Assembly (NCBI GenBank): GCA_051313645.2
Contig: JBNRSN020000029.1
Location: forward strand, 40,920,001-40,984,000
Origin: Centroscyllium fabricii
Lineage: Eukaryota
Length of the DNA: 64,000 nt
Reading direction: 5' to 3'
Positions 281 to 61,268 of the stretch are shown one piece after another. The position numbers were made by a program, and so were the translations under genes. Within the stretch, counting starts at the first letter, position 1, and every line of letters starts with the position of its first letter. The notes beneath the pieces were generated by a model. That model did no database searches, was not told the origin of the DNA, and worked only from the letters and a program-made list of their open reading frames with translations.

Positions 281-307
281 CAAAATCATAAAGTACATTC
301 GTTTTGA
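281..307 (-). CDS. Candidate 27-nt phase-1 micro-exon (xKTNVLYDF)
   Basis: Minus strand ggttgcag|TCAAAACGAATGTACTTTATGATTTTG|gtaaga; strong donor, weak acceptor. Confidence 0.35.
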
Positions 308-388
308 CTGCAACCATGGTGTATTACACCTCCTCTTCGTCTTCGAAACCTTTTGCACATTTTGTATCTATAGACTTAGCATCCTACA

Positions 389-646
389 CCAAAGATGTGC
401 GGGTTAGGTTGATTGGCCATGATAAATTGACTCTTCGTGTTAGGGGGATTGAATATGTGGGGTTACGGGGATCGAGTGGGATATGTGTCGATGCAGGTTC
501 GCTAGGAATCGAGGGATATGGGGGAGGGCAGGGGCGGGACACTGGGTTTGGATGATTAGCCATGATCTCATTGAATGGCGGAGCAGGCTCGAAGGGCCGA
601 ATGGCCTACTCCTGCTCCTAGTTTCTATGTTTCTATATTTCTATGT
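389..646 (+). mobile_element. 5'-truncated HE1-type V-SINE with CR1-derived tail
   Basis: ccaaagatgtgcgggttaggttgattggcc body, ggccgaatggcctactcctgctcc tail and ttctatgt repeats; matches the full copy at 35110. Confidence 0.9.
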
Positions 647-649
647 TGC

Positions 650-1200
650 ACTAATGCCTCTGCGCCTTTGTGCTGCTCAGTGCAATATCGTTGGCCTTTA
701 CCTATCCGCTCATAAGCAACGATTTATTTACCAAAGGATTGTCTTCCCATCCCCTTTCAGACACCGTCAGAATTCAACAAGAATGCGCTCTTAGCTCGTC
801 TTATTCCTAATCAACACTTTACCCGTTGGTGGCGTCATCCTAAGACACGAGGCCAGCTTCCACGTGTACGCTTATGACACCCGGCTCTACCTCTCCTGAA
901 CATCGCTCGCCCATTCTTCTGCCTCAATGCTATAACATTGATTTTATATATCCAGTACTGGACGATTCTCCATTTCTTCCAGCGAAACAGTGACAAGACC
1001 AAAGTCCATATTACTGGTTCCCACCAGAATATCTGTATCCCAGGCCCTGACGTCACCCCCGCTGCAGTGAATAACGTAAGGTTAACTGGACTGCTTGAAA
1101 TGTTGATACCTATGCAACCCTGATCTCCGCCTTTGACCCCTCCTAATATATATTCCTACGGATCCACAGCCATTTATTTTTTTGCACCTCTGCAAAGAGA
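650..1200 (+). mobile_element. Highly degraded Penelope-like fragment (probable GIY-YIG region)
   Basis: Pyrimidine-rich sequence resembling the C-terminal part of the Penelope copy at 39.1-39.8 kb; no intact ORF. Confidence 0.4.
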
Positions 1201-1454
1201 TGATTACGTCTCTGTGAAGCGCTTGTGTGTCTTTGTTACTGCGGTAAAAAATACACCTAATTGTTTTAAGAATAGCATACACTTAAGGCACTTTGTTTCT
1301 AGGAATTTATATTTTAAAGTGTCATTACAATGTGCAGCGCTGATGGAAACTATTTGCATACTGGCTGTATGAGTTACCCATTAGCAGAGTACAAGGGGGG
1401 CAGCCAATTAGCAAATGTACATTAATAAACCGTAAGTTCTTCAACGTTCTTTGC

Positions 1455-4400
1455 TTTATTAATTCGTTTATGGGATGTGCACATCGTTGGCAAGGACAGC
1501 AGCTATTGCACATCCCTAATTGCTCTTGAGAATGTGGTGGTGAGCTGCCTTCTTGAAACGCTGTAGTCCGTGTGGTGATGGTACTCGCACAGTGTTAGGT
1601 AGCTTAGTTCTAGTATTTTTACCCGGTGATAAATTTCTACGTCAGGATGCTGTGTGACTTGGAGTGCAATTAGGAGATGGTGGTCCCATGCTTCCCTTTT
1701 CTTTCTAGGTGGAAGAGGTCGCCGGTTTGGAGGTGCTATCGAAGAAGCCTTGGCGAAATGCTGCAGTGCATCTTGTAGATGGTATACACTGCAGCCACGG
1801 TACGCCAGTGGAGGAGGGAGTGAATGTTTAATGTGGAAAATGGGGTACTGATCATGCACTCTGCTATGGCTTGGAAAGTGTGAAGCTTCTGGCGTGTTGT
1901 TGGAACTGTCGTGATCCAGGCAAGTGCAGAGTACTCCACCACACTGCTTACTTGTGCCTTGTAGGGGGTGGAATGGTTTTGGGGAGTCAGGATGTGAGAC
2001 ACATGCCGCAGAATACCTAGCCTCTGATCTGCCTTTGTTGCCACAGTATTTACGTGGCTGGTCCAGTTAAGTTTCTGGTCAATGGTGACCACCAGGATCT
2101 TGTTTGTGAGGTATTCGGCGGTGGAAATGCCGTTGAATGTCATGTGGATGTGGAAAGAACCTCGCTTTTGGGAGATAGTCATTGCCTGGTGCTTCTATGG
2201 CACCAATGTTACAGGCCACGTCGTCCAGGCTTCGTTGCATGAGGGCATAGACCTTTTCATTATCTGAGGTGTTGCTAATGGCGCTGAACACTGCGCAGTC
2301 ATCAGCAAACATTCCCATTTTACATCCCATTTCTGACATTATGGTGGAGGGAAGATAATTGATGAAGCAGCTGAAGGTGGATGGGCCTGGGACACTGCAC
2401 TGAGGAACAGCTGCAGCATAGAAACATAGAAGATAGGAGCAGGAGTAGGCCATTAGGCCCTTCGAGCCTGCTCCGCCATTCAATAAGATCATGGCTGATA
2501 ATCCTAACCCAGTACCCTGTCCCTATATCCCTCGATCCCTATCGAGCGTGCACTGACACATATCCCACCCTATCCCAATATCCCTACATATTCAATCCAC
2601 CTAACACTAAGCGTCAATGTATATTCCTGGGGCTGTGAATATTGACCTTCAACCACCCCAATGAACTTCCTTTGTGCTAGGTATGACTCCAGCCAATGGA
2701 GCATTTTCGTCCGATTCCCTTTGACTTTAGTTTTACTAGGGCTTCTTCATGCAGCACTCGGTCAAATGCTGCCTTGAAGTCAAGGGCAGTCACTTTCAGG
2801 ACACCGCTGGAATTTAGCTCCTATGTGCATGGTTGGACCAAGACTGTAATGAGGTCGGGAGCCAAGTTCTCTTGGCAATACCAAGCTGAGTATTAGTGAG
2901 CAGTTGTTTGGTGAGTAATTGCCGTTTGATAGCGCTGCCGTTGACACCTTCCACCATTTTGCAGATGATTGAGAGTTGAGTAGTATTTGGCCAGTTTGGA
3001 TTTGTCCAGCTTTTTGTGAACAGGAAATACTTGGGCAGTTGTCCACATTGTCAGGAAGATGCCAGTGTTGTCGCTGTAATGGAACAGCTTGGCTGGAGAC
3101 GTGGCTCATTCTGGAGTAACGTCTTCAGTATGGTAGCTGAGATGTTGTCGGGATTCATATCCTTTGCCATATCAAGTGCGCGCAAACGTTTCTACATATC
3201 ACGGGCAGTGAACTGAGTTAGCTGAAGACTGGCTTCTGTGAAGATGGGGACCTCAGGAGTAGGCCAATATTGATCAACCACTCTGCACACCTGGCTGAAG
3301 ATGGTTGCAAACGCTTCAGCCATGTATTTTGCAATTACATGCTGTGTTCCACCATCATTGAGGATGGGATTATTCATGCAGCATCCACCCATTAATTGTT
3401 TAATGTGCCACTACCATTCACGGCTGGATGCAGCAGAACTGCAGAGTTTTGATCCGATCCATTGTTTGTGGGATAGCTCAGCCCTGTCTACAGCATGCTG
3501 CCTCGGCTTTTTAGCATGCATGATGTCCGCTGTTGCAGCTTCCCCATTTTGGTACCTAATTTTAAGGTACGCTTGGTGCTGCTCTTCTACACACGTTATC
3601 TTACCAGGGTTGGACCTCTGGCTTGATGGTAATGGTAGAGTGAGGGACAGTACTTTCCATTAAGTTTCAGATTGTGGTGGAATACAATTCTGCGGCTGCT
3701 GATGGTCGACAGCGCCTCATGGATGCCCAATATTGTGCTGTCAGATCTATTCTGAATCTATCCAATTTGGCGTGGTGTAGTGGCATACAACACGATGTCC
3801 TCAGTGTGAAGACGTGACTTCGTCCCCACAATCATTATGCTGTGGTGACTGATAGCAATACTCTCCTGGACAGATGCATCTGCAATAGGTAGATTGATGA
3901 CGACGATGTCAAGTAGGTTTTTCCCTTGTGCTTCTTCCACGTGGTGTTCAATATGGAGGAGAATTAATTCATTAGCTGACGGAAGGTGTAAGCTGGTAGT
4001 CTGCAGGATGTTACCTTGCCAATGTGTGACCTGTAGCCGTGAGACTTCATGGGGTCCATTGTAAAAGTTGAGTATTGTCAGGGACTCTCATTCCCGACTG
4101 TAAAACAAACAGCTATGAACACAATAATAAGAATGAAATGTGATGGTACTTTCGGCACCACTGTGCCGCCACACCTGGTGATGGAGGATTTTGGGAAATT
4201 GACTGAAATGTATGATCCTGTGAGTATGACAACCTGTGGCTGATGCTTGACTAGTCTGTGGGACAGCTCTCCAAATTTTGGCAGACGAACCCAGATGTTG
4301 CTGCGGACGACTTTGCGGGCTTGACTGTGTCGGGTGTCGGGGCCAGGTGTTCCGTCCCATTTTCATTCTTATTAATGCATTTTGCAGTGGTTTATTAAAA

Positions 4401-4705
4401 CTGAGTGGCTTGCTAAGCCATTGCACATGGAACCACGCTGCTGTGGGTCTGGGGTCACATATAGGCCAGACCAGGTAAGGGCAGCAGATTCCCTTCTCTA
4501 AAGGACATTAATGAATCTGATGAGTTTTCTTAGGGCAATCCGATATTTTCATGGTTGCCGTTACCAATAACAGCTTTTTATTCCAGATTTATTTAATTAA
4601 CTGCACTTAAAGTTGTCTGCCGTGGACGGTTTTGAACTGACGTTTCTGGATCATTTTCCAGGCCTCTAGATTACCCGCCCAGTGAAATTACCACTACGCA
4701 ACCAA
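1455..4705 (-). mobile_element. Degenerate non-LTR retrotransposon (L2/CR1-group, APE + RT) with tRNA/SINE-like 5' head
   Basis: RT fragments VPQCSVPGPSTFSCFINYLP..MFADD and YKAQVSSVVEYS; APE fragment NLLDIVVINLP..SHH; A/B-box-like motifs at 4627-4701. Confidence 0.8.
2417..2612 (-). mobile_element. Truncated HE1-type SINE nested in LINE
   Basis: catagaaacatagaagataggagcaggagtaggcc tail interrupts the RT region. Confidence 0.85.
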
Positions 4706-4753
4706 TTCCTTGCATGAAACGTTTTGTTAAAATGTTCCATGTATTTTCGAAAC

Positions 4754-4786
4754 CAGTGCTTTTCCACATGGTAGTCATTGAATTAG
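4754..4786 (-). CDS. Weak candidate 33-nt phase-1 micro-exon (xNSMTTMWKST)
   Basis: Pyrimidine tract plus aag acceptor, weak gtttcg donor, 74-nt intron from the exon at 4861. Confidence 0.25.
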
Positions 4787-4860
4787 CTTTCGACACAACC
4801 AGAGACAAACAAGGAAAAGGTTCACCGAAAAAAATTGTGAATTATATTTTTATGCCTTAC

Positions 4861-4887
4861 TGCAGTCTTGAAGTTGTTTTTTCAATT
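4861..4887 (-). CDS. 27-nt phase-1 micro-exon (ELKKQLQDC)
   Basis: ttttatttag|AATTGAAAAAACAACTTCAAGACTGCA|gtaagg; amphipathic helical peptide. Confidence 0.65.
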
Positions 4888-5064
4888 CTAAATAAAATTA
4901 CATGAACCATGTCATCTTAAGCGATTGTAGTAAGATCTCATCAACAGAATGTTATTATACAAGTTCAGTAATGGTACACTGTCAAACCATAACAAAATAA
5001 ACCTCGGTGCTCTACACAGGGATACCAACCACTTTCTCTTAGATCAAAATAGCTTATGCTGCAT

Positions 5065-5298
5065 TTACCAGAGGGTGGTGAATATGTGGAATTCTTCACA
5101 ACAGAATGTTGTGGAGGCCAAATCACTGAATATATTTAAGAAGGAGATAGATAGATTTCTAGAAACAAAGGCATCACGGGTTCTGGAGAGAGAGCGGGAA
5201 TGTGGTATTGAGATAAAAGATCAGCCATGATCATATTGAATGGTGGAGGAGTCTCGAAGAACCGAATAGCCTACTGCTGCTCCTGCTTGTTTCTATGC
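5065..5298 (+). mobile_element. CR1 3'-end fragment
   Basis: QRVVNMWNS..VVEAKSLNIFKKEIDRFL ORF2 C-terminus plus 3' UTR. Confidence 0.85.
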
Positions 5299-5460
5299 AA
5301 TTTAGAGCAGGATCTGATGTCATTTACCAATTGTACAAAATGCACCCACCTTTCTCTGTTCATTCTACCTTCTCTCTTGTTTTGCAAAACCAATTCACAC
5401 ATTTATGGACCGATACATTGACTAAATATTTTTTCTAGTTCAATGTTAAATATAATGAGT

Positions 5461-6459: not shown

Positions 6460-8377
6460 AATAAGCTATGAAGTGATGTACACAATAGTTATCACCATTG
6501 TTGCGGTTGTTATATGCAGCAGCATCATCAATAAAAAAGAAAATTGTCAGAGTAAAACGGGCTTCCAATTCCGATGGTGCGCTTTGCACCAACACTCATG
6601 ACAATGTATACCCCACGGACATCAATGGAACTGACTATCAGGAGGAAACTAAAACAGTTAGTCCACCTCATTTCATGCCATTCCGCCCGTTGTGAATACG
6701 GACCTAAGAATTTCGAATGTATCTATTCCAGCTTTTCATTTCATTAATCAGCATGATTGAGGTTCATGCAAAGGCCCTTGGTTGCAACCTAAAGATGGTG
6801 TTCCACAGTGAGCTGAGCTGTGTTTTGAGCTGCAAATTCGCCAGCTACGACAGCCTCCTTCCACCACAGTTAGCATGACCACTTGTGAGCGAAATGAACT
6901 AGCCACTAATAAACCGCTTCATCACTAGGTTAAAAACGTGTCAACTGCGTTGCTCGCCGCCCGCCTCATCTATCAGATATCAGCAAATCGAGAACACTCC
7001 AGATCTACCTGTCTCCTGCGGAATGGGCATAAAAATCAACTTCACCAACAGCAAATCTGATGTTGGATGATAGGCATCCACTAACGCACCCACCCAATGT
7101 TCCTTTCGAGTAAAATCAGTGTACATGTGTTTTATAACAGGCTGCCGGTCGGCGATTGATCACCTTGCACTACGAGTCATGAATAATTTCATGTGCAAAC
7201 TACTTTCCGGGTCTCGCACCTGAAACATACGCTAGATTTCTGTAAAACTTTGTTAGCGCTTGTTCCTGCTTCTTCAACTCTGGCATTGGAAAGCAGTGCA
7301 GCCTCGGCAAGCAATTTCATTTCAAAAGGAACGACCGTGGTAGGCAGTTTACGGTTTTGCTTTCCTTAAGTGCGCAAGTAGCGCGAAAGTAGAAAATCTC
7401 CCATAAATAATTTGCATTTTCATGGCAATTTTGCGAATTGCTACGTATTGCTCAATTTAAAAAATAAATCGAAAATAACCACACTTTACCATTCACGCTG
7501 CCGGTTTGCTCCTCTGTAACAGAAACAGAACAGGTGGTATCAAATTGAAAACAAAGGCATATAATGTTGCCACGATTAGTGGGAGGCCAGAGCATTTGGA
7601 AAATTTTAAAAACCAGCCTAGGTAGATTTACAAAAATAATAAACGGAGAGACGATGAATTAGTAGAGTAAACTAGACAGAAATATAAAATAGTTAGTAAG
7701 ATCTTCTGCAGGTATATAAAAAGAAAGAGCAGCTAAAGTAAACTTTGGTCCCTTACAGGATGAGATTGTGTAATTAATAATGCGGAACAGGGAAATGGGA
7801 GAGACATTGAACAAATATTTTGTATCAGTATTCACGGTAGAAGACACTAGAATCAGACAATAACACATAATCATGGGGCTACAGGTAGGGGCGAACTTAA
7901 ACCAATCACTATCATTAAGGAAAAGGTACTGGGTAAAATAATGGGACTAAAGGTGGACACGTCCCCTGGTCCTGATGGCCTTCAGTCTAGAGTCTTAATA
8001 TAATTGTCTGAAGAGATACTAGATGCATTGTTTGCAATCTAGCAGCATTCCCTGGACTCTGGAGAGGTGCCAGCGGATTAGAAAACCGCAACTGTAACGC
8101 CCCTATTTAAGATGGTAGGGATACAGGAAGGAAGAAACTATAGACCAGTTAGCCTAAAATCTGTCATTGGGAAAATGCTGGAGTCCATCATTAAGGAAGC
8201 AATAGCAGGAATTTCAAAATTTCACAAAACATTCAAGCAGAGTCAGCATGGTTTGTGAAAGGGAAATCATGTTTGACAAATTTGCTGGAGTTCCTTGAGG
8301 ATGGAAAGAGCAGGGTGGATAAATTAGAACCAGTCGATGTGGTGTATTTGGATTGCCAGAAAACAAGCGATACGATG

Positions 8378-16875: not shown

Positions 16876-16877
16876 AC

Positions 16878-21168: not shown

Positions 21169-23571
21169 ATTAAATTAATTGAATTAATATTCAAACAAAA
21201 TTGAATTAAAAAAATCAATTAAAGTGTTTATACGGGACTAAAGCTAAACTTGCGCTTTAGAAAAGTAACTTTATATTATAAATGTGTGAAAAAAAATATT
21301 TGTTTAACTTTTTCAAACTCTTAAGCTTGGAAAAGCAGGCCTTACGCAGCACAATCGGTTTAGAAATATTGTACTGGGGTAATCATTATTAAAAATCTAC
21401 AAAGCAGGCGACTTTCACCAGCAGAGAAAAATCAATTTACGATGCCTTTAAGAAATTAACTGCCATTTTACTTTATATTTACCAACTGTCTCCAGTTACC
21501 CCAGGTGCGTGGTCGCATTTCTGTTGCATTCGCTCCACAACAAAAACTCCACGAGATGTTCTCTAGAACAAGCTACTCATTGTTTTCCATTTCAGCTATG
21601 AAACGAACCAGCTTTATAATTGACATGAAATAGCAAAATAAAAAGCACAGTGATATCATAATACGTCCGGCACTAAGAATTGATTGTGATATTTGCAGTT
21701 AAGATGTTTTAACTTTGCTATACATATCGTGAATCCTTCCTACAACACCATTCTGTGAAACAAAATGATGGGGGTGAAATTGCACGTGGAGCGGAAGCAC
21801 AGGCGGCATTCTCTGACTTGCCAACTGTTGTAAGACACGCCGAATATTCACCCCGATTGGAAGCAGCAACTATTGTGAACACCTCTTTTCCCTTGGGATC
21901 CTCGGTTTCACCAGTAGTTTGATAGCAATGTATGCCCCATGAAGTATTTTAATAGACAGGGTAATTTAGCGAGTGGCTGCGTGTACACTATTGAAAGCAG
22001 AACTCCATAATAGCACCAAAATATTTCATATTACCAGTCTTGCTGCCAGCTTCACCCCCTGTAAGAGAAATATAAAAGCAATCCCTCTGAGGAAAAGTTT
22101 CAAATTAAGTCATTTCCAGCATTTTTTGTTTTAGATTCTTTCTTTGAAAATTCAGTTCTAATGGAAGCAGCGACTTTGGCGTGCAGCATTTTTTCATGGT
22201 TCTGGAGTGCGGCACTTTATGTTTTGAGGATTTGTCGTGTAGACTTTCCCCAGGCTTTCCGTTATAGGCAGTGACAAACATGCAGTACGCAGAGTAGGGG
22301 GATTGTTGACTGCTGACTGTGCAAGTGACCCCAGAATCAAGTGGGCCAGGCCAAACAATGAAAAAAGGGGATTACTTTTATGCTTATGAGGATGCCATTC
22401 AAGTAAGGAATCCGCATATGCTTAATAGAATTCCACCATTAAGCACAATTTCCGAAAACTGAAATGAGATACATGATCACAGCTTCAAATATAATTAAAA
22501 TACAATTTCTTTAAAAATGTAAAATAAAAAAATAATTTTTGAGAAATAAATTTAAACATTTTCAACTGAGTCAAAATAGACCTGAATTAGCTCTAAATGT
22601 AATTGATTGTTTAAAACATTTTAACCATCTTATTGTAACATTGATTTAAACCCTTAGGCTGGTAAAATGACGCCATATGATAAGTGCTTGGTGGGTACAA
22701 GTTGGGCAGTAATTGAGGAACTAGCCCAAATCTGCACGAGCAAAAGTGAATTTACAGCCGATGGGTATGATCTGCCAAGGTTCTCCGCCGCGGGTACTCT
22801 GAACTTGTGGGGAACATATGACGCTGAACGCTGTGCATACGCCGTCATAGGCCCCGGAAAATCCGAGCCAAATAGTGCAACGCGCCACCAAACAAGCCAT
22901 AGGAATACCAAACTGCAAACTGTTACTCAGTTTAGAACAGGTGTTGTACTGTGAGTCAACATAATTAAAGACCTACCAAGCAGACTAATGGTATCTGCAG
23001 AGCACAATCAAGATTCGATTGCATTCGGAAATTCGTTGCCTTATTACTTAATATTTATCCAATGCCTAAACCTATCCCATATGCAGGTATACATTTCCAC
23101 TGAACACTTTTGTTATTTATTTTCCATTTCAGCTATGAAATGGACCGGCATTATATTTGACCTGAAATAGAACAGCAACTAATACAAATATACCATAACA
23201 CGTCCGGCATTGATTATGATATTGGCAGCTAAAATGTATAAAACGTGCTGTACATAGCGTGCACCATTTGTGCTTCACCGTTCTGCAACACAACGTAGGG
23301 ATAGGCTGTTGGTGAAATTGGGCTTAGCAGGGAAGCAGACGCGGCATTATCAGTTTTGTCGACTGTTATTTGACACGCCGAATATTCCCTTCCATTGGAA
23401 GCAGCGAAGATGGTGAGCAGATTTCTTACTTGGGTTCCTGCAGTGCGCCAATAGAGTGACTGCAATGAAGGTCCCATGAAGTATTTTAATGTACTGAGTA
23501 ATTTAGCGATTGGCTGCGTGTGACTCTATTGAAAATAAAACCTCATAATAGCCCCTAAATATGTCACATTA

Positions 23572-23715
23572 CACAGTCCAAAGATGTGCGGGTTAGGTTG
23601 ATTGGCAATGATAAAATGGACCCTTAGTGTTAGGGGGACTGATTGTGTGTGGTTACGGGGATAAGGTGGGATATATGTCGATGCAGGCTCGATAGGGATG
23701 TGGGGAGAAGGCAGA
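23572..23715 (+). mobile_element. Internal HE1-type SINE fragment at the B/C unit junction
   Basis: acagtccaaagatgtgcgggttagg..ctcgatagggat. Confidence 0.85.
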
Positions 23716-24859: not shown

Positions 24860-26041
24860 AATAGCCCCAAAATATGTAATTTTCACATTCCTTGCTTCCA
24901 GCTCCCCCCCCCCCCACCCATCGGAAAAACAGAATAGGAATCGTGTTGAGAAAAAGTTTCAGTGGAAGCCAATTCCAGATATTTTTTAGATTTTTAACTT
25001 TACAAATTCAGTTCCATTGGAAGCAACGGCATTGGCGAAAAATTTCCTTATTTGTGGTTCTGGAGTACGCCAGCATTTCGGATTGAGATATCTCGATTAA
25101 ATTTTATAATTTAAAAAGCAATTTTGCGATTTGCCGCATATGGCTCAGTTAAAAAATACACACATAAAGTAGCATAATTGGGCGATGTTTCTGCTCTTGT
25201 TGCCGGTTTGGTACCCGAAAGATAAACAGTGCAGGAATCGTTTTGAGCAAACTACTTCACGACTATCCATCTCCATCATGTTTTTAGATGCTCTCTTTGA
25301 AAATGAGTAAATTGAAAAAAGCCGTCAGGTAAAATCATTTGAAACCTTTGGAAATCTCTGTCTTGGTGTAGGCTTTTGTGACGTAGCTGAGTAGCACTTG
25401 AAATGGCAACTTCTGAGCTGACGGTGGAAGCCACCAGTGCTGAAGGAGATGTAACACCTTTTGTCTGGTTGTTGCACAGAATTTTCCGAGACTCATTTTC
25501 ATTTTCAGGGGCAGATACTCAGTGGGCGGCTAATGGGAATGAGTGTACTGCGTTCGATTTTATTTCCATTGAAGTAAATCTGACAAACATATGCATGTCC
25601 TTGCTGATTTAGGACAGTGCGACTGCCACTCTCTTCAATACCACATCATATTAGCAAAGCACAAAAGCAGCCATTAAAAGAGATGGTCACCTGTATTTAG
25701 ACTTGCCGCAATGTACTTATTACTTGAAGTCAATGGAAAAACACATTGGATGGAATGCAAACCAGTTCCGATTCGCTATCGCCCACCTTGCAGTAGCAGA
25801 TAAGTCGAATTGTTACCCCAACTCTCTGCTTCTGAACTGGCAGAATAAGCTTCCGTCTGGCTATATTATGGAGGCCCGTAACACCACTTAAAATAGAGAT
25901 AGCTGTATGTATAACATGTATATTTGCACTGCATGGCCGTTAGGAATACAGATCTGTCAGCCGTCACTAAGTTTGGATGTGGGAGATCAGATTTATCTCT
26001 CCCTTCCATATGTGCGTTCTTTAAGTCAGCTTCTCTTTCGC

Positions 26042-26072: not shown

Positions 26073-26417
26073 TGATTTAAAATAAAACTGTTGGACTATA
26101 ATCTGGTGTTGTGTGACTTCTTATGTTTGGAAGAAGTATTGCACTAGGATTCAACATAATTAAAAAACTTAGAAAACAGTCTACGGTCACCGGATGAGCT
26201 CAATCAAGATTCGATTCCGTTCGAAATTATCTGCCATATTACCTAATACTTGCCAACTCTCTACAGATAATCCAGATGCAGGGAGTAATTTCCTTTGCAG
26301 AAACAAGAAATTTCTCCACAAGAAACATAACAAAAGATGCCCTCTGGAACAAGATACTTATTATTTTCCAATTCAGCTATGAAAAGCACCAACATTAGAA
26401 TTGATGTGAAACAGCAA

Positions 26418-28000
26418 TATAATATTTTGGAGAAACTAAAGGTAGACAAATCTCCTGGGCCAGACGGGATATATCCAAGGATTCTCTGGGAGGCGAGGAA
26501 CGAAATTGCAGAGCCACTGACCTCTATCTTTAGATCATCGCTATCCTCGGGGATAGTCCCTGAGGACTGGAGAGAGGCGAATGTGGCTCCCATATTTAAA
26601 AAGGGGAAAAGGGGCGTGCCAGGGAACTACAGACCAATCAGCCTCACCTCAGTGGTTGGAAAGATGATGGAAAGGGTCCTGAGGGACAAGATCTACGACC
26701 ATCTAGAAAGGGGCAAATTAATCAGAAGCAGTCAGCACGGTTTTGTTAAGGGTAAATCGTGTCTGACCAACCTGATAGAATTCTTTGAAGAGGTGACCAG
26801 GAGTGTGGACGAGGGAAAGGCGGTTGATGTCATATATATGGACTTCAGCAAGGCGTTCGACAAGGTCCCGCACGGTCGGCTCATGAAGAAAGTAAGGAGT
26901 TGCGGGGTAAGCAGCAAAGTGGTGGGATGGATGGAGAACTGGCTGGCTCAGAGGAAGCAGAGGGTAATGGTAGAAGGCCAATACTCGAGCTGGAGACCGG
27001 TCACCAGCGGGGTACCACAGGGGTCGGTGTTGGGGCCACTACTGTTTGTAATCTTCATCAATGACTTGGAGGAGGGGGCTGAGGGGTGGGTCAGCAAATT
27101 TGCAGATGGCACAAAGATTGGGGGAGTAGTGGATGAGGAGGAAGGGAGTAGAACGATTCAGAGGGATATAGACAGGATGCAGAGCTGGGCTGAAGAATGG
27201 CAAATGGAGTTCAACACGGGGAAATGCGAGGTGATGCACTTCGGCAGGGCAAATAGGAAGAGGGAATACAGGGTCAACGGCAGGATCCTGAGTGAAGCAG
27301 AGGAGCAAAGGGATCTGGGAGTATATGTACACAGATCACTGAAGGCTGCCACCCAGGTGGACAAAGCAGTAAAAAAGGCCTATGGTGTATTGGCCTTCAT
27401 CAACAGGGGAATAGAGTTTAAGAACCGGGAGGTCATGCTGCAGTTGTACAGGTCACTGGTGAGACCACACGTGGAGTACTGTGTGCAGTTCTGGGCACCG
27501 TACTACAGGAGGGATGTGGAGGCACTGGAAAGAGTGCAGAGGAGATTCACCAGGATGCTGCCGGGAATGGGGGGAAAGTCATATGAGGAACGGTTAAGGG
27601 AACTGGGACTCTTCTCCCTGGAACGAAGAAGGAGGAGGGGGGACCTGATAGAGATGTATAAAATGATGAAGGGGATCGACAGAGTAAATGTGCAAAGACT
27701 GTTTCCCCGGGCGGGAAGAACGACAACAAGAGGACACGAGCACAAGATTCAAGGAGGAAGATTCAGACGGGATGGCAGGGGCAAGTTCTTCACACAAAGA
27801 GTGGTCGGGGAATGGAATAGGCTACCATCTGAAATAGTGGATGCGGACAGTCTGGGTGCTTTTAAAAGGATGATAGACAGGTACATGGAAGGGAAGGAAC
27901 AGTAGGGGGGACAGGAAAAATCAGAGACGGAATAAGGGCGGCACTACATTGAGGGCCCAAGGGCCTGTACAGTGCTGTATGTTCTATGTTCTATGTTCTA
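26418..28000 (+). mobile_element. Young 5'-truncated CR1 with uninterrupted RT ORF (to 27905); catalytic FADD changed to FADG
   Basis: ORF 26337-27905: [36 protein letters not shown]; (TTCTATG)n tail; flanks rejoin as tandem unit D. Confidence 0.95.
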
Positions 28001-28638: not shown

Positions 28639-28674
28639 CCACATTTAATCTTCTGAATGTGGAATATTTCCATT
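28639..28674 (-). CDS. 36-nt micro-exon (phase 1 EWKYSTFRRLNV, or phase 2 MEIFHIQKIKC)
   Basis: ctttttctag|AATGG..ATGTGG|gtaaga. Confidence 0.6.
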
Positions 28675-28916: not shown

Positions 28917-28943
28917 CACACTTTTCTTTAAGGTCTTTGATTT
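28917..28943 (-). CDS. 27-nt phase-1 micro-exon (EIKDLKEKC)
   Basis: tactttttctcag|AAATCAAAGACCTTAAAGAAAAGTGTG|gtaagc. Confidence 0.7.
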
Positions 28944-36407: not shown

Positions 36408-36714
36408 ACAGCAAATCGGTTTACCGTCATCTCTTGATCGCAGAACTTGTGCTGCAGGTAAACACATACAGTTTAGAATTGTAGTCATAACAATTCAGTA
36501 AAGTTTCTGTTGGTGCAATTGCAGTTTTAAATCTAACATTATGGAACAAAATGAGTCAGTTCTGCACTAAGGCTGTAAAAAGCAATCTTAAAAATGTAAA
36601 GTTTTTCAGCATAAAGTCCAGATAGATACAGCGAAGAACAAGTTTGGCAGAATAATGACCATTACCTTACAAATTCCACACATTTTTAGTTGAGAGAAAA
36701 TCTCAGAATTTAAT

Positions 36715-41363: not shown

Positions 41364-41399
41364 CTGCGTCCTGCAGTCTTCCGATCAGTTTTCCTATTT
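41364..41399 (-). CDS. 36-nt phase-1 micro-exon (EIGKLIGRLQDA)
   Basis: ttcatatttcag|AAATAGG..GACGCAG|gtaagg; both sites near consensus. Confidence 0.7.
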
Positions 41400-41850: not shown

Positions 41851-44800
41851 TATGGGCAGACTCCAATTTCTCGCCCATTCAGTTTGGGCCTAGCGCACAA
41901 TGGGAGAATACCTATTTTTTTCAATTGCAAAGATAATTGTGAAGAATGAAAAATAGCAGCGAATTTGATTTTGCCAGCTTTCGCTACCAGCCTGGAGAAA
42001 TGTAGCGCACATTTAGTTGGCTTCTTAGGTGTCTATTTCCAATTGGATCGCTCGGGCCAAGAACGGGCGTTCTGGATCCGCTGCAGTTACAGAAATTAAC
42101 CGATTTCCATTTTCACTGATTTCAATAGAAATCGGGCTGTTTTTATCAATGGAGTTTAAATTGGGTGGTTTCTGCAACGGGTGCCCAATCCCCAACATTG
42201 GGATCATTGTATTAACATTGGGTTGAGGTGGAAAATGGGAGATATCAAGTTGGCTGTCTTTTATACACACCTAGTTCTTTATCCAGTTGACGTAAATGGA
42301 AGGGAAGATCGTGTGGGGTGTATAATCGGCGGCCAGCAAGAATTCACCGATTATACACTATCGCCCAAAGTTAAAATTACGCTCCACATATTGCCGGATA
42401 TTCCAGTAGGTATGAATAAGTAAGTTAAAAGAAATAAACATCCATCAGATTTTCGTGACAAATCCTGTCCTTTCAACTCAAGAATGAACAGCATAACTTT
42501 CAAAACAATGCATATATAACAAGGGAAAAGATTTATCTATTACCAGTCCAAATGAAGTCGGAATAAAATTTTAATTCTGAAAACTCACATATATTATATG
42601 GCTGGTAATCGCTTTCTGATGTTGAACAACGTTACTTGTAGGAGCGTTAGAACTTTACCGAGCATCAATACATGAAGTTGTATGTATAGATATAACAAAT
42701 TGTGAGTTTGGATAAAAAAAAATGCTGATATACGAAATAAGTCCAAATGCCAATTCAGTTGAACGTTTATTAAAGATTTTAGATATTTGTAAAACTTTTA
42801 GAAGATTTTAAATGTTCTCGAAGTCTTTGAAAGTTTTTATCATCTTTAAAATGTTTTCAAAGTGTAATTTCAGTAGAAGAGGCAGAGAGACGTTACTGCG
42901 GGCTTGGCTTAGATTTGACAGCTTTTGTGGGCATGACTTCCCTTACGCATTGGCTGTACGCAGTGCTCCTCTCGTCGATTAAGTCACATGCTGTGCAGAA
43001 CTCTGCAGCGTCAAAGAGGAAGTCTGTGTTCTGGGCCTTGCACAGGTTTAGTTCATAATCTCTTTGCAGGTTGGCAGTGTACTCCGTAGCTAAACCACCG
43101 ACCGTAATTTTGGGGCAATGAATGATATAATTATAATGTCGCTTTGCTCGGGCACTATTCAAACAATGTATAATTAGAAAAAATTGCAGCGGTCAATTGC
43201 AGCCCTGCATAAAATTGATGGGTGCCTGGCTGTCCTGTTAATACAAAGTTTAAATTATGCCAGCAATCAAGACAAAGTTACAATATTAACTTTGTCTTGA
43301 ACCTGCGAATTTGCCATGTTACAGTCTGTATTATATAATTACTTCGCAAGTTGCCAAGTAATTTAACTGTACATTAATTTGTTACAAAGGCCTGTGAACA
43401 ATTGCATGGAGATAAGGGACATTGTAGTTGTTAACCCGACAATTTTTGTGACGAAATTGGAGAAATATTGCAGCGATCACTAACAAGTAAATTGAAAATA
43501 AATAGGTAGTTTGCTACTTCTACAGCAAAACATGTTGGATTCGAATGCAATGTATAGATATCGTGACGTATTTACCGATGTCTTTTGCCAGCAGCTGCCT
43601 CACTGTAACACAATTCATTAAGCGAATGTATTCATTATTGTTACGAATCTACAAATAACAACAAATATAATTATATTAAACGAATCAGTCGAGAGTACAA
43701 AGTGCAATTTGTAAGGTAAAACTATTACACAAACTCCAGTTAAAATGCATTCTGTAAATAATTGGGATGATATCTTTTTGATATAATGCTACGCAGTCAA
43801 ATATAGGCCCTGAAATTACTCAGTCGTGGATCGTCATGAACGACTGTAAAATTCTTAACGAAGTCTCTATTACACTTCACAAATCGTCGTGGAATTCTGA
43901 CATGAGACAAATTTTCTTTGTCAGTGGTTCAGCGTAAGAGCGTGGAGGGCAGACGCTCTTATCACGCACTGGGGTGTATACTGCTCAGAAATGTATGTAA
44001 TTTAATTTTAAAGAAGGAAAACACTTGGATCCTGATGAAATAATGGAGTCTGATACATCAATAACTTCAAGCAAAGCTTTAATCGACTACATTAACACTA
44101 TGTAAAAAAGACGGGTTTTCCCATGCTTCCAGTTGAAACTTTCTCCACATACTGAGCAGTTCCAGTATTTATAGTAGCAGGAAACAGGAAGTGACAAGTA
44201 CAGAGTTCAGCCCTTAGTCTTCCCCCGGAAGTCTGTTTAATATTACCACAGATCCCAAATTGCAACACGTGCTTTCGTAGCAACACGCTCTCGGCAGGTT
44301 TGGATGGGAAATGTGCTTCTTAGTTGAAAGAGAAATTATGTCTCTCGCTGTAATCCTTAATTTGTAGGTCGATTGTTTGTGTGTGTTCTGCATTGATATA
44401 AATTATCTAATCATTCTTATGTTTCTTCTATTTCCTGAAGTGTGTAAGTTTTTCCCAGGGAATGAATGAGAACACCAATAGAAATTAATTAAGCAATGCA
44501 TTGTACTATAACTTCAGTCATATGAGTCAATCTTGCGCATGTTCTACTTTATTGGAACGCTTTTACCTGGTTATTTATCCACATTGTTTTTGTGAAAATG
44601 TGTTTCCTGACATCAATCTTGAACTTACATTTCATTATATGTGCCTGAGTAGAGCGAAAAACTGCATTTGATCGTCATATTATTACCTTGATGATATTAT
44701 CCAATTACCTCAAGATAACTCCCTGAAAACACGGCCGTGACCATGAGCTTCATACTGTCCGCCTGATTATTTTCCTTTATTGTGCGCAAGTAAAAGATAA

Positions 44801-49522: not shown

Positions 49523-49564
49523 ATTCCTCAATTTTGAAATTAATTTTCCAATTATATGTCCACT
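49523..49564 (-). CDS. 42-nt candidate micro-exon (phase 1 xWTYNWKINFKIEE; phase 0 SGHIIGKLISKLRN)
   Basis: tttttaatttgcag|AGTGG..AGGAAT|gtgagt. Confidence 0.55.
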
Positions 49565-54975: not shown

Positions 54976-55099
54976 GTTATTTTCGATTGAAGAATAATAC
55001 TGCTATTCTATATCATTGTTTTCCAATATTGCTGTTCATTTTATTTCCTAAGGTTCTGTTCTCAGCCACTCAAAATCAGCTTTTGTCCAATCTATTAGC

Positions 55100-56080: not shown

Positions 56081-56107
56081 TGCTCGCTTTAAGAAGTTTG
56101 TTGCGTT
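56081..56107 (-). CDS. 27-nt phase-1 micro-exon (ERNKLLKAS)
   Basis: ttctttttttattcccatactcattag|AACGCAACAAACTTCTTAAAGCGAGCA|gtaagt. Confidence 0.7.
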
Positions 56108-56429
56108 CTAATGAGTATGGGAATAAAAAAAGAACACGGGTAATAAATAATAAGATATAAAAAGTAAATTTCACTTCAATTATATTATACCAAGGATAAT
56201 CACTCAAAGTAAATAAAATATCTAATCTGGCCAGGATTTTTCACAAATCATAAGAAAATGTAGCCTGAACTAATTGAGTTTCTAACTTTTCCGAACTTGC
56301 AATATATTGCTGAGATGCCTGTAATATTACCAAATTAATATATGTCTGTAAGAAGCACGGTGCTTGCAATGAAATCTTGGATGTTTATGTGTGCTGAAAC
56401 ATTAGATAATAATGGATTGGTAACGTGAT

Positions 56430-57150
56430 TTCAGCTACAGTCGTGATTTTGCTCTACCTAGCCAGGCGGGAAAACCAAGGTTCGAAGCCGGTTTCACATC
56501 CGCCCATTTATAAAAAACCAGGCACGGATAAAACCAACATTGCGACCGATGCCGTCAGTTTCCCAACATGGGCTTGGGTTAAAATTGCCACAGATCAGGA
56601 TATTGGTTCTAGTACTAGACCCGCATCAGAACAATATTGAATGAAGAGAGAAGGTATGTAACAGGTGTTGCCATGAGGCAAGTTTAGCTTTCGAGTTGAA
56701 TAGGTATTAAAAATAGAAACACATTGGCAGGACTTTTCAGAGTTAAGATAGGGTGGGTTGCTCGCAAGGGTGCAAGTGAAAGTTGAAACGAGCACAACTT
56801 GCCTCCAAGCCGCCTGCTTTCACCTTTTATTCAGACAGTAGGCGGGGGTGGTGCAAGCGGGCTGCCAACCCGCTGCCAGGAGGCGGGTTAGCAAAATAAA
56901 TATTATAATGTTGCCTAAAGTCCCTGCTTTGCCGGTTTTATTGCAAGCGGGCGCGGATCCCGGGCTCGAGATTCCCGCAGTTTGCACTGAAGTGGCCGCA
57001 GCCTCGAGGAGCAATGCTTGCAGTCCAGGAGCAGCGGACGTGCTTCCTCTAGCACTGTAGCTCCCCCCCCATCAGCTTGACCCTCCCCGGCATCAGGGTT
57101 CGGTAGTCCCCGTGATCGGACCTACCCCCCACCCAACTTTGGACAACTCC
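56430..57150. mobile_element. GC-rich MITE-like remnants
   Basis: Inverted GC-rich motifs (ggcggg..cccgc, aaaattgcc) like other DNA elements in the window. Confidence 0.4.
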
Positions 57151-57169
57151 CTCCACGGGGATCACGTCT

Positions 57170-58470
57170 CCTTCAAGTATTTATCTTATTCCCCGTTAAA
57201 AGCTACTATTGAATTTCTATTCACTTCTCCAGGCACAGCATACCAAATCAGAGACAATCTTGCCTTTAATTAAAAACCTTAATTTCGCCTCTGGTTCTTT
57301 GGTCAACCTCCTCAACCTGTGCGCTCTGGTTATCGATCCTTCAGCCATTGTAAAAAAATTTTTTCATTTAATCTGTTTAATCCCTTCATGATTTTATCAT
57401 CATCTATTAAATCACGTAATCGCCTCCTCTGCTCCTATCTTCTATATTTCTATGTTTCTCCAATTGAGTCATGTAACTGTAATCCTTTAAACCTAGTTCA
57501 AATTTGTAAGTATCTTCTGCTCCTCTCCAAAGATTTCAGGTCCTTCCTAACGTGTAATGCCCAGAATATAGTACAAAGAAGCAGCTGGGGCGAAATTAAT
57601 GTTTTATACAGTTTCAGCATACATTCCTGACGTTAAAAAAAAGCTTTTCTAGCCGGCCCTGCTACGTTCAGAGATATGTTCACAAATAACCATAGGACTC
57701 AGTGTTCATGCATCCCCTTTAAAATTGTAACATTTAGCTTGCATGGTCTCTCCTCATTCTTCGTACCCAAATGTATCACTTCACACTTTTCTGCATTGAA
57801 TTTCATCTGCCACAATCCGCCCATTCCCCTAGCCTGCCTATGTCCTCTTGAGGTTAATTGCTCACTAACTCCCTCACTGTTTATTACTCTTCCAAGTTTC
57901 GTGTCTTCTGCAAATTTAGAAGTTGTTTCCTGTACCTTCAAGGATAAATCGTTGATTTTCTCAAAAACAGCAGCAGTCCTTGTCCTGGAACTTGGGGAAC
58001 ACCACAGTGTACCACACTTCAGTCTGAAACACAGCCATCCATCACAACTCTCTGTATCCTATCAATTAGCCAATTATGCATCCATGCCGCTGCTGCTGCC
58101 CCTTTTATCTCATGAGCTACAGTTTTAAGTGCTTCCTTACCAAACGCCTTTTGAAAGGCCATACACGAAACATAAGCTGCACTGATCTCCTCCACCATTC
58201 CTGTTACCTGATCAAAATCTCAATCAATTTAAACAAACACGATTTGCTCTTCAAAACTCCGTGCTGGCTCTCTTTATTACCTGTCCATGTGGCTATTAAT
58301 ATTCCCCCTGCCTTTGTTTCTATAAGATTCCCTGCCAGCGAGCTTAAATGACAGGCCAATAATTGCCAGATTTATCCTTCATCCCTTGTTTGAACCAATA
58401 TCTGAAGTTAGCAAACCTCCAGTCCTCGAACACCACCCCTATATCTCAGGGGGTTTGAACGATTTTGGTC
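57170..58470 (-). mobile_element. Old CR1 RT / 3' fragment
   Basis: SKFAEDTKLG..WQMKFNAEKCEVIH. Confidence 0.85.
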
Positions 58471-59276
58471 AGCAGCTGTTGTAGAATTTTTGTCCACTAT
58501 TTTCAAAGAGGGATTACTTTATTTTATAATCATTGGGCCAGTAATTGACCTTGTGCAGTAGTGCAAATCCGTCAGGAGCGGATCGGATGGCCGTTATATG
58601 GCCCCTCCTATTCCATTCCATCAACTGTACTGGCACTGAATAGCTGGCAGTGTGTATAGAGGCATCACATTCAAACCTCTACAAGTTGCATTGCCGCCCA
58701 AAACGACGTTCTTCCCCACTGAATACAAACAATTTTAATTTTCCAACATTGTTCACAGCTAACTGCAGCCTTCATGCTTAAAAAACAATAATCGGCAGTT
58801 AAAAATTAAAGTGTTAAATGAAGGCCGTTATATTAATTTGAACCAAACCAAAATATGAAGGTTTTATTAAGGCTGTTGACATTTTGCTGTGCCGGAATGA
58901 TTCACTTGCATTTAAGGTCTTATGGGATTAAGTGAAATATTGCACCATTAAATGATGGACAGCATTTTCAATGATAACTGGTAAAGATTTCCACATGCTG
59001 CTATGTAGATAACATAGCAAACATCAAGTTACCACCTCACAAGGTAATATCACGATAAGGTAGGCGTAACAATAGGATAACAGTAAAACCTGAAATTATC
59101 ATGAAAAAATAAAACATTATGAATATACGACATAAGATTCAAAACAACGAAATGTCGCAGATTGCAATTATCTTTAGACCAATTTCTAGACGCAAAGAAT
59201 GAATGCATGTCAGAGTGCCGAACGACGAAACGTCCATCACTGGCCCGTTAAGTTCACCTACAGGTATATCCGGTAC

Positions 59277-59315
59277 CTGGGCCACCATTTTGTAATCTCA
59301 CTCTTCTTCGGGCTC
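59277..59315 (-). CDS. Candidate 39-nt phase-1 micro-exon (GARRRVRLQNGGP)
   Basis: tgttacag|GAGCCC..GCCCAG|gtaccg; 73-nt intron from the exon at 59389. Confidence 0.4.
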
Positions 59316-59388
59316 CTGTAACATTTAATATTAATAGTGTATTCAAGGCGTGTAAATAAATAAATAATAAAACGCAGAAAGTGTTTAC

Positions 59389-59412
59389 CTATACATTGTT
59401 CCTCTTGCTCGG
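59389..59412 (-). CDS. 24-nt phase-1 micro-exon (xEQEEQCI)
   Basis: ctgattttgttctgtcgtatcacag|CCGAGCAAGAGGAACAATGTATAG|gtaaac; branch-like CTGAT. Confidence 0.5.
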   Translation of the reverse strand, partial: PSKRNNV

Positions 59413-59515
59413 CTGTGATACGACAGAACAAAATCAGGTTACATCTACTAACAATGTGCCAACAAAACAGAACTGTGTTTTGGGGTATATGCATCGCTTT
59501 GGAAAATAATAACAA

Positions 59516-59559
59516 ATGTAAATGTGTGTGTATACGTATGTAAATGTGTGTGTATACGT
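59516..59559. repeat. 22-bp tandem duplication
   Basis: atgtaaatgtgtgtgtatacgt x2. Confidence 0.9.
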
Positions 59560-59681
59560 ATAACACGATTGGAGTGGGAATATCCTGTACATACTAAAGT
59601 GCTATGTACATACTTCACAAGATAAATTAAGATTCTGTTGATTCTGCACAATGACGTAAATCAACCCCATTAAGGATTAAT

Positions 59682-60432
59682 GGCCCCAAAATTAGGGTGA
59701 CCGTGGGCCGTTCTGGAGCCACTTACTCACGCGTGTGGGCTCCAAATGCAGGAAGACACTTTTTCCCGGAGCTACCTGCAATTTCGATGAAGGCCAGTGG
59801 GGGATCGTGAGCTGCAGCGAGCTGCAGTGCATTCGCCTGCGCACCACGAGGTGCGCAGTGGAATTCCAATTTTTGCTTAGAGTTTTTTTAACTGTGTAAG
59901 TATCGGGAAAGTTACTCTGAAAAAACTCAGCTGTAACGATCCCTTTTTATCAGGTAAGTGTTTAATTTTATAAAATGTAATTTTTTTTACAGGGTTTTAT
60001 TTTTTTTTAACTTTAAAGACAGGGAAGTATTTTATCGGCCCGTTAAAAACCTTAAATTTATTTTCTTTTTTTTCTTTAAAATAGGTAATTTGTGTTAGTT
60101 AGAGTATTGTTAAAAATGTGGTGTTTTTAATTTAATTTTTGTGTTTAGATGTGTTTTTGAAGCTCTTCCTTTTCATAACTTACACAGATTTCCCCGTGTA
60201 AGTTATGAATGGAGGATTGCTCCCATTCATTGGCGCCCTGCAGATCACGTGGTGCCACACGAGATCTTCCACTAACTACGACGTTGAGTTACACCAGCGC
60301 GGCACCTGGAGCCTGCAGCAGGTTTCCAAATCGGGATTTCACATCCCAGAATTGCAGAACGGCAGGAGCGCAGGGTAAGGGTACCTTGGAGGCTTACACT
60401 CGCAGGAAGGCTCCGAGGCTAATTTTTGGGCC
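59682..60432. mobile_element. Harbinger-like MITE (~750 bp) with AAT target duplication
   Basis: aat-ggccccaaaattag ... ctaatttttgggcc-aat. Confidence 0.85.
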
Positions 60433-61098
60433 AATATGTTGACCTTTTTGTAAGATAAAATAACGTGCCACTGGCAATAAATGAACAGTGCAAGCTTCCT
60501 GGAGATCTGGAAGAAATTCGTCCATGCTTCCCGCTGCTGGTGGTGTAATCGTTATCGTTCATGTTGCGCTCTCTTTCAAGACAATATTTATCCCCTGAGT
60601 TGTCTCTCTTATGACCTATAAACGTGCTGTTCATCTAGATTTTCAACACATTCATGAAGAACATGTCTCCAGTTTCGTTACATACAGCCCGTTAAATGGG
60701 AAATCGTCTCCGGCCGCTAAGTAAGTACATTGTAACAGAAAGTGTTTTGATTTCTCCAAAACGTACAGTGATCAAAAGTACTCCCTCCTCCAACATTTAT
60801 AAGTGTGCTGACACATAGCTATCAATACAATCTTAGAAATCTTTGCTGCTATGCTTAAGTAGCGGTTGCGCATCAGAATCACTCAAAGAGGTTGCACTGA
60901 CCCATCGCTATCCGACAGGTGCTATCATTGCTAGGGCAAGGAGAAAGCATGAGTCCATGAAGTAGGAGTACTTGCTGCACCAATGAGAAGGGGCGACGTT
61001 GAAAATTCAGGAAGACTATCATCTCTCCCCGGAACAACCAGCGGGTCCAGCTGAACCACACATGGGCCGCTCTGAATTTTCTGCCCACACTCGCTCAC

Positions 61099-61160
61099 AC
61101 GCCGATTTAGGGCTGCCAATGGCACAGGAGCCCGATCGTTATATGTAAATGATGCCATCG
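61099..61160 (-). CDS. Candidate exon (AMASFTYNDRAPVPLAALNR), 60 or 62 nt depending on donor
   Basis: tgactgtttcatattcccag|CGATGG..; donor gtgtga or gtgagc; 81-nt intron from the exon at 61242. Confidence 0.4.
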
Positions 61161-61241
61161 CTGGGAATATGAAACAGTCATGCCGTAGTTGGCAAAGCAA
61201 CTCCCTAACTTAATAATGAAATGGTATAATCTCTACTTTAC

Positions 61242-61268
61242 CTGTATATTTCCCTTTGGATCCCTCTA
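61242..61268 (-). CDS. 24/27-nt phase-1 micro-exon with NAGNAG acceptor (xEGSKGKYT)
   Basis: ctgattttcacttccattttag|TAG|AGGGATCCAAAGGGAAATATACAG|gtaaag. Confidence 0.5.

Follow-up and report, generated by a model that had tools for sequence, protein, structure and literature searches.

A minus-strand array of phase-1 micro-exons beside nurim in Centroscyllium fabricii includes a predicted gene for a coiled-coil rod

The locus

We analysed a stretch of 64,000 nucleotides from Centroscyllium fabricii (assembly GCA_051313645.2, contig JBNRSN020000029.1, positions 40,920,001 to 40,984,000), hereafter the window. Positions are given relative to the window (contig position minus 40,920,000), also beyond its ends, unless they are called contig positions. 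Over half of the window is repeat (53% by self-comparison), and its low-copy DNA carries very short exons on the minus strand. These exons are part of an array that lies between an RBM4-like and a nurim-like gene. The whole window (1-64000, minus strand) falls within one predicted gene of this array, which we call gene A, and we predict that it holds 10 to 14 of the internal exons of that gene. A preliminary description of the sequence had proposed a hidden minus-strand gene of symmetric phase-1 micro-exons that encodes a coiled coil, possibly the cytoplasmic tail of a butyrophilin (BTN) or of a BG protein of the chicken type.

Micro-exons on one strand

The five peptides named in the preliminary description are all present (5/5), on the minus strand and flanked by AG and GT, in segments at 56081-56107, 41364-41399, 28917-28943, 28639-28674 and 4861-4887, the numbers it gave being the low (donor) ends. 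We scored candidate exons with a generic splice matrix and with an exon model trained on 63 exons located outside the window. A comparison between strands and with shuffled sequence had also been suggested, and here it clearly favours the exons: in the 36.6 kb of low-copy DNA in the window, the trained model identifies nine distinct exons of 24, 27 or 36 nt on the minus strand and none on the plus strand, compared with a mean of 0.12 calls (maximum 1) in 60 dinucleotide resamples of the window. The generic matrix gives seven minus-strand and two plus-strand calls and a resample mean of 0.73 (maximum 4).

We then applied the generic matrix (score of at least 5) to the low-copy DNA of 664 contiguous kb. 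Candidates on the minus and plus strands number 51 and 2 at 27 nt, 24 and 1 at 36 nt, and 17 and 3 at 24 nt; at 21 nt they number 2 and 3, and over all lengths from 12 to 75 nt 317 and 222. The minus-strand excess falls at 24, 27 and 36 nt, three of the five lengths that had been proposed. For the other two, no 39-nt candidate passed on the minus strand of the window, and the only 42-nt candidate in the window with good generic scores at both splice sites, at 49523-49564, is unproven. Among the minus-strand candidates of the 664 kb, phase 1 is open in 49 of 51 (27 nt), 24 of 24 (36 nt) and 15 of 17 (24 nt), while phase 0 is open in 24 of 51, 2 of 24 and 7 of 17, respectively.

Two motif scans of the 7.2-Gb genome placed 15 of 30 and 18 of 76 matches on this contig, all of them on the minus strand and between contig 40.297 and 42.186 Mb; the motifs were tuned on 664 kb of this interval, and 6 and 8 of the interval matches lie outside the tuned part. 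It is thus extremely improbable that the segments are chance AG..GT matches in repeat-poor islands. Three candidates of the preliminary description (28639, 281 and the 42-nt segment) do lack independent support and would fit such an explanation, but it is refuted by the strand, length, phase, resampling and paralog tests, and this concentration of motif matches in one interval also speaks against it. The minus-strand micro-exons in the window are real by every DNA test run.

Exons and candidates of the window

Read along the minus strand, the window begins with a 36-nt phase-1 exon at 61793-61828 (EIKALQKKLKEA; trained score 17.6), just outside the range of the preliminary description and with an intact paralog at -453,746. 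Because this exon ends in T, the 24-nt form of the next exon would make a stop at the junction. The next exon, at 61242-61268, has 27 nt, or 24 nt by use of a tandem acceptor at 61265 (scores 10.7 and 10.8). The frame after 61793 stays open only with the 27-nt form, one junction stop being found with the 24-nt form, and its paralog at -454,350 corresponds to the 24-nt form.

Four phase-1 exons with intact paralogs follow: 24 nt at 59389-59412 (score 8.9; paralog at -456,259), 27 nt at 56081-56107 (ERNKLLKAS in the preliminary description; generic score 4.1; -457,397), 27 nt at 43576-43602 (score 11.5; -460,928) and 36 nt at 41364-41399 (EIGKLIGRLQDA, also named there; score 12.3; -464,247). 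The Trp-rich 42-nt candidate at 49523-49564 (generic score 6.3) lies among them and has no aligned paralog block. A probable 27-nt exon at 36425-36451 (score 9.6) has no aligned paralog and resembles the xxLRLKDx class of the array, its best matches being the exons at +297,540 and -47,245. The 27-nt phase-1 exon at 28917-28943 (EIKDLKEKC; score 18.2) is in a region that has no paralog alignment.

Towards the low end of the window lie a 24-nt phase-1 exon at 22035-22058 (score 10.8; intact paralog at -484,000), a second 24-nt phase-1 exon of the same class at 7490-7513 (score 10.6; 76% identity, across 51 nt, with the exon at -484,000), and a 27-nt phase-1 exon at 4861-4887 (ELKKQLQDC; score 7.5; intact paralog at -497,729). 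The region of the 22035-22058 exon also has two decayed local copies on the minus strand, at about 24860-24977 and at 23512-23578, in which the splice sites are lost. Two further candidates are unproven because they combine weak generic acceptor scores with no aligned paralog: 36 nt at 28639-28674 (EWKYSTFRRLNV; acceptor -0.2, atypical composition), and 27 nt at 281-307 (acceptor -2.2), probably the start of the range in the preliminary description.

Four sequencing runs (two samples from one study, one of which may be the sample of the assembly itself) behaved like genomic DNA. Contigs built from these runs span the exons at 43602, 49564, 56107, 59412, 61268 and 61828, each by a contig with zero differences; the differences listed against the window (40 of 218) include no exonic one, and the joints listed (15 of 909) include no splice. 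The window also contains, at 26331-27905 on the plus strand, a 524-codon open frame of a long interspersed nuclear element (LINE) reverse transcriptase, which we take from its sequence to be of the CR1 type.

A colinear paralog

The block from +170 kb to -66 kb has a colinear duplicate, about 70% identical, at -264 kb to -655 kb, and eight window exons have intact counterparts in it. With the paralog block as the reference, 19 of its 21 called exons have an intact partner in gene A; one of the remaining two looks spurious, and the gene A partner of the other was lost to a repeat insertion near window 5,280. For 25 equal-length exon pairs, chosen as intact in both copies and leaving out one pair that differs by 3 nt, the ratio of nonsynonymous to synonymous substitution rates (dN/dS) is 0.67, and 0.53 for the 8 window pairs. 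Protein identity in the 25 pairs is 59%, and 47 of 56 hydrophobic residues are kept hydrophobic. The flanks of these pairs share 71% identity, their 2,978 alignment columns containing 62 gaps, and in a neutral simulation AG, GT and an open frame survive in a mean of only 5.0 of 25 pairs (maximum 12).

The alignments suggest a protein that evolves fast while its frame, its length and its hydrophobic positions are kept. Phase-1 symmetry allows exons to be gained and lost freely with no frameshift, a freedom that is visible in the comparison with the paralog and in the decayed copies at window 23.5-25 kb.

The predicted product

The predicted product contains about 16% each of K, E and L and 0.2% P. 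Hydrophobic residues occupy positions 2, 5 and 9 of the 36-nt exons (63%, 81% and 67%) and position 4 of the 27-nt exons (71%). The two lengths alternate, with 45 of 100 length transitions being 36-27 or 27-36 and only 2 being 36-36. A pair of 36 and 27 nt encodes 12+9 = 21 residues, which equals three heptads, and the hydrophobic positions of this unit would correspond to heptad positions a, d, a and a. The hydrophobic spectrum peaks at 3.45-3.5 residues, and the peak falls when the exon order is shuffled. We assembled a 37-exon chain of gene A that was edited by hand (one acceptor shifted, four low-scoring exons set in and three removed); it has no stop and a periodicity of 0.429, compared with 0.188 in residue shuffles and 0.273 in exon-order shuffles, with 0 of 300 reaching 0.429 in either. 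The composition and the heptad register agree with the coiled coil of the preliminary description. Exon skipping, by which the preliminary description would have the length adjusted and which resembles the alternative splicing that varies BG tails, should keep the frame when a single exon of 9 or 12 codons is skipped but shift the heptad register by two residues, and only the 36+27 pair should keep both.

Exons this short are poor queries. When a 40-residue natural frame that includes one conserved micro-exon served as the query, no protein scored at E <= 10 (56 candidates), and with profiles of single micro-exons the held-out target scored below shuffles.

Start exons, stop exon and B30.2 exons

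Gene A has an ATG exon of 131 nt at 179,669-179,799 on the minus strand, conserved in a second gene of the array, gene B. The gene B counterpart has 132 nt, an ATG in good context and phase 1 open throughout, and the indel between the two exons falls before the ATG. At -78 kb, just downstream of the broken B30.2 exon of gene A (below), lies a CpG island with a paralog at +185 kb; it is followed by indel-rich exon-like segments and then by the ATG exon of gene B, and this set recurs at +179 to +186 kb. Only these two copies of the ATG exon were found. Each codes for 39 residues that are hydrophilic and include an acidic tyrosine motif, and neither has a Pfam match or a Cys/His pattern; in gene A the best 11-residue hydropathy is 0.25, and the start exon contains no signal peptide, Ig (immunoglobulin) domain, membrane span or RING.

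At the other end of gene A, a 27-nt minus-strand micro-exon at -61,692 to -61,666 contains TGA and TAA, while its paralog is open; its splice sites are strong (8.8 and 5.8). Beyond it, from -63,971 to about -64,490, is a minus-strand B30.2 exon broken by an early stop and two frameshifts. Gene A as predicted thus covers about 250 kb of the minus strand, from the ATG exon at +179.8 kb through 42 called micro-exons (381 codons) to the TGA-TAA exon and the broken B30.2, and these borders place the window inside it.

Gene B runs from -78 kb to an intact terminal B30.2 exon at contig 40,270,085-40,270,605 (about -650 kb, minus strand), with 173 codons, a stop, an AATAAA signal and a Pfam SPRY match at E 3.3e-9. 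The preliminary description had suggested looking for a PRY-SPRY exon to the left of the window, and there are two: the broken copy 64 kb and the intact copy 650 kb away. A third B30.2 exon on the minus strand, intact and with a stop, at contig 42,045 kb, has PRY and SPRY over the cut-off and ends gene D, which extends from about contig 42.21 Mb. For the exons from contig 42.04 Mb to +217 kb (gene C), no end was found in the 184 kb searched. With three related B30.2 exons and two ATG exons that are paralogs, the array most likely represents a tandem cluster of several related genes.

The intact B30.2 of gene B matches its two neighbours in the interval and a copy on contig C1233 at E 1e-27 to 4e-43, and other scored B30.2 exons at E 3e-21 or weaker, 150 of about 550 candidates being scored in each comparison. 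The C1233 copy (C1233:1,629,917-1,630,423) is 37-42% identical and is possibly a further family member. Many PRY-SPRY exons lie on the same contig at 15-57 Mb. A PRY family scan (best 150 of 488 candidates) showed nothing in the interval, a misleading blank, as the divergent B30.2 exons were found later.

Several candidates were set aside. The array was initially read as one single gene, which was given up on finding the B30.2 and ATG exons. A short stop exon at contig 40,277,541 was dropped as a 3' end when the B30.2 exon was found 7 kb further on, and a 318-nt intron at -89,640, open and in frame, looks like an ordinary intron whose openness we take as chance. Two further segments may mark gene borders: a 24-nt exon-like segment at +214,356, whose splice sites are good and which has a stop in frame and lies close to sequence paralogous to the 3' part of gene B, suggesting the decaying end of the upstream gene; and a 27-nt exon at contig 42,211,422-42,211,448 (minus strand) in which an ATG follows an in-frame TAA, and which is either broken or the first gene's start exon.

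A headless rod as the favoured reading of gene A

Taken together, the DNA evidence suggests that gene A likely encodes an intracellular coiled-coil rod of about 400-450 residues and is a tandem paralog of genes whose rods likely end in B30.2. Its exons would be spliced in order, and the product would form coiled-coil dimers. The rods of genes B and D would be long spacers that present a ligand-binding B30.2; because neither a ligase nor a membrane anchor was found, these two products likely act as intracellular adaptors or sensors. The stop that gene A would have acquired lies about 10 nt ahead of its last predicted junction. By the 50-nt rule of nonsense-mediated decay, a transcript with a stop so close to the last junction would escape this decay. 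The stop would have freed the B30.2 of gene A to decay, leaving a headless rod, which likely pairs with the B30.2-bearing paralogs as a structural partner or decoy. The rod would grow and shrink by duplication and loss of symmetric exons, with the frame kept.

Several points weigh against this reading. Neither spliced reads nor protein records connect one exon with another, and the start exon of gene A has no database match. The dN/dS is just mildly below 1, has no confidence interval, pools both lineages and comes from pairs preselected as intact. Gene A shows decay in its broken B30.2, its stop exon, the exon replaced by a repeat near window 5,280 and the T on the donor side of the 61793 exon, which calls for a shifted acceptor. 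The role as partner or decoy is an argument purely from analogy. Finally, no 3' end was found for the exons that lie from +217 kb up to the B30.2 at contig 42,045 kb, so they may be spliced to gene A, and in that case gene A would not stand as a unit of its own.

Alternatively, gene A may be a young pseudogene, a duplicate, functional through most of its past but now in decay, whose exons in the window are real but disused. The broken B30.2, the stop-bearing exon, the lost exon, the decayed exon copies and a weakened acceptor at 56107 all fit this possibility. However, the coding lesions cluster at the 3' end (three in 518 nt of B30.2 and two stops in one 27-nt exon), whereas the middle retains 19 of 21 intact counterparts and the ATG exon is intact; decay at a uniform rate would have struck several middle exons. 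We consider a pseudogene quite unlikely.

Extent of the array and its neighbours

The preliminary description had the gene spread over more than 60 kb, and the array in fact extends about 1.2 Mb to the right and about 0.65 Mb to the left of the window, for a total of about 1.93 Mb. The 664 kb contain 124 minus-strand against 17 plus-strand candidates at an equal cut-off, sparse samples found like exons from +1,143 kb to -617 kb, and walks to both ends placed micro-exons from contig 42,210,854 down to 40,279,981. Extrapolating from the roughly half of the interval that was read, we estimate that the whole array comprises 300-360 exons and 2,900-3,400 codons over the 1.93 Mb.

Upstream, the array is bordered by a gene with RRM and zinc-knuckle domains, RBM4-like by domain order and by the sawfish table discussed below, and downstream by a nurim-like gene, whose exon is 90% identical to its best match and comes closest to shark and ray proteins. 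A CpG island at contig 42,265,065-42,265,391, located between the cluster and the RBM4-like gene, contains several GCGCATGCGC palindromes, which we take to be NRF1-like, and is a candidate promoter. Elsewhere, a 27-nt motif has single matches with array-like peptides at C558:740,764, C858:21,125, C1278:667,389 and C335:95,542,773, which may mark related micro-exon genes. Within the array, an identical 27-nt Gly/Ser-rich exon at -224,994 and -237,338 lies in a 12.3-kb tandem duplicate, a recent duplication or an assembly artefact.

Among other species, the sawfish has a nurim-like gene separated by a gene-free 0.96 Mb from an uncharacterised 4-kb model, which is followed by an RBM4B-like gene; the white shark has 1.83 Mb with no annotated gene after NRM; and in the reedfish nrm adjoins dhx16 (PMC10751288). 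In the catshark, seven same-strand models of 0.18-1.18 Mb each tile 3.9 Mb upstream of NRM (PMC10751288, supplementary file 1). These very long RefSeq models (LOC119976524, LOC119976526, LOC119976528, LOC119975528, LOC119976764, LOC119975529 and LOC119975530) have the same position and strand relative to nurim as our array; the source table gives neither names nor sequences, and orthology is suggested by position alone (PMC10751288). Likewise, it is by position only that the elasmobranch intervals beside NRM appear orthologous to the array.

The interval could instead consist of one or two giant transcription units, in which upstream exons splice into gene A, skip its stop exon and broken B30.2 and run into gene B. 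The rod would then reach up to about 3,000 residues and finish with the intact B30.2, and internal promoters would serve as alternative starts. Such a unit would account for every exon being on one strand and in phase 1, for the finding of no terminal exon for the exons at +217 to +364 kb, for the gene B ATG exon, which at 132 nt and with phase 1 open throughout could be internal, and for the intact micro-exons of gene A beside its decaying end. Against it, two paralogous ATG exons with indel-rich upstream exons and a CpG island sit just 3' of a B30.2 exon or in a 46-kb gap, the 131-nt ATG exon of gene A would shift the frame if internal, the stop exon retains strong splice sites (8.8 and 5.8), and the interval itself includes, at contig 42,045 kb, an intact B30.2 that carries a stop. 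We therefore regard giant units as unlikely. In a wider form of the idea, to which we give equally little weight, the 1-4 Mb beside nurim in elasmobranch major histocompatibility complexes (MHCs) would be one locus with at least 300 micro-exons, alternative starts and B30.2 ends, and a read-through rod of about 3,000 residues, an Ig-less and RING-less version of the module that butyrophilins carry behind the membrane span. Titin has 363 exons, and if this were true, a single locus would approach that number.

Comparison with butyrophilins, BG and TRIM proteins

Butyrophilins consist of IgV-IgC, a membrane span, a few heptads and B30.2 (PMC8813856, PMC12841164). The array shares with them, BTN3A1 in particular, short phase-1 heptad exons and linkage to the MHC; a PRY-SPRY exon at the end of the heptad region is intact in two paralogs and broken in gene A. 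Unlike butyrophilins, it has a predicted rod of hundreds of residues rather than a few heptads, and their IgV-IgC-transmembrane front was not found.

Chicken BG proteins have an IgV and transmembrane front and no B30.2, and their tails come from about 27-37 exons per gene, each of 21 nt (7 residues) or sometimes of 8 residues (PMC4046983, PMC5938342, PMC8813856). Like BG, the array is an MHC-linked tandem family with a run of tiny exons for a heptad coiled coil whose number varies between paralogs, and gene A is predicted to lack B30.2. In contrast to BG, gene A starts with neither Ig nor membrane span, its exons of 27 and 36 nt pair to 21 residues, the shark genes span 0.2-0.6 Mb or more, and the paralogs keep B30.2.

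It is very unlikely that the window exons are the tail of a true BTN or BG membrane protein with Ig and transmembrane exons far upstream, as the preliminary description had leaned towards. In support of such a protein, phase-1 micro-exons precede a B30.2 in an MHC region, the B30.2 at 42,045 kb has BTN3A1 as its best match among solved structures (E 2.6e-30, compared with 3.4e-23 for TRIM58), and a stretch resembling a membrane span precedes a phase-1 donor on the upstream side of the first micro-exon, 35 kb away; no second one was found in 370 kb of low-copy DNA at a threshold set after the stretch had been seen. However, this stretch lies 1.26 Mb away from the window, with an intact B30.2 stop exon downstream of it, and could belong at most to the first gene; gene A has its own hydrophilic ATG exon; and its exons of 27 and 36 nt are not the 21 nt of BG. 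No signal peptide or transmembrane segment was seen before the heptads of gene A, the only membrane-like phase-1 exon being that distant one. No Ig motif was recognised up to the RBM4-like gene, no Ig exon in 464 kb or in the 100 kb at the 5' end of the array, and nothing in the interval by a V-set scan (best 150 of 1397 candidates). The butyrophilin IgC model PF22705 placed 0 of its 32 matches on this contig (77/77 candidates scored), the BTN-like IgC exons of the genome being on other contigs. The distant stretch itself, a 159-nt phase 1-1 candidate exon at contig 42,246,418-42,246,576 (minus strand) with 26 hydrophobic residues, may anchor the first gene of the cluster in the membrane; protein, representative-library, atlas, Pfam and own-genome searches returned no relative for it, blanks that are weak.

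TRIM proteins combine RING and B-box, a coiled coil and a C-terminal B30.2 (PMC8813856). The family as predicted from DNA would resemble those with B30.2 in having an intracellular coiled coil and a C-terminal B30.2, joined by a splice link that we infer. The 39-residue start exon of genes A and B, with no RING or B-box, and a coiled coil built from dozens of micro-exons set it apart; no starts were found for the genes further upstream. Because the family shares the rod and the B30.2 but, in the tests made, not the Ig, membrane or RING features, it resembles the inner half of BTN, BG and TRIM proteins without being a member of these families. CCDC7 and TSBP1/C6orf10 are micro-exon testis genes, and the terminal B30.2 argues against kinship with either. 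A search of titles and abstract openings found no prior description of such a family, with subscription papers outside its coverage, and six LOC identifiers (four catshark, one sawfish and one white shark) were named in no paper found; RefSeq may hold partial catshark models.

Significance

From its DNA, the array appears to be a real, unannotated or poorly annotated gene family of the coiled-coil/B30.2 kind. Standard annotation would miss it because almost no exon is long enough to align, and exact exon coordinates now make RNA tests at the level of single junctions possible. The family fills an apparent gene desert in the elasmobranch MHC, where the sawfish and white shark intervals upstream of NRM (0.96 and 1.83 Mb) have no annotated gene compared with an estimated 300-360 coding micro-exons here. 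Its architecture, a rod and B30.2 with no Ig and no RING and a 21-residue unit split 12+9 over two exons, stands between butyrophilin/BG and TRIM genes. The growth of such tails and their loss of B30.2 can be tested directly in this family, as can the serial splicing of 27-nt exons set in multi-kilobase introns.

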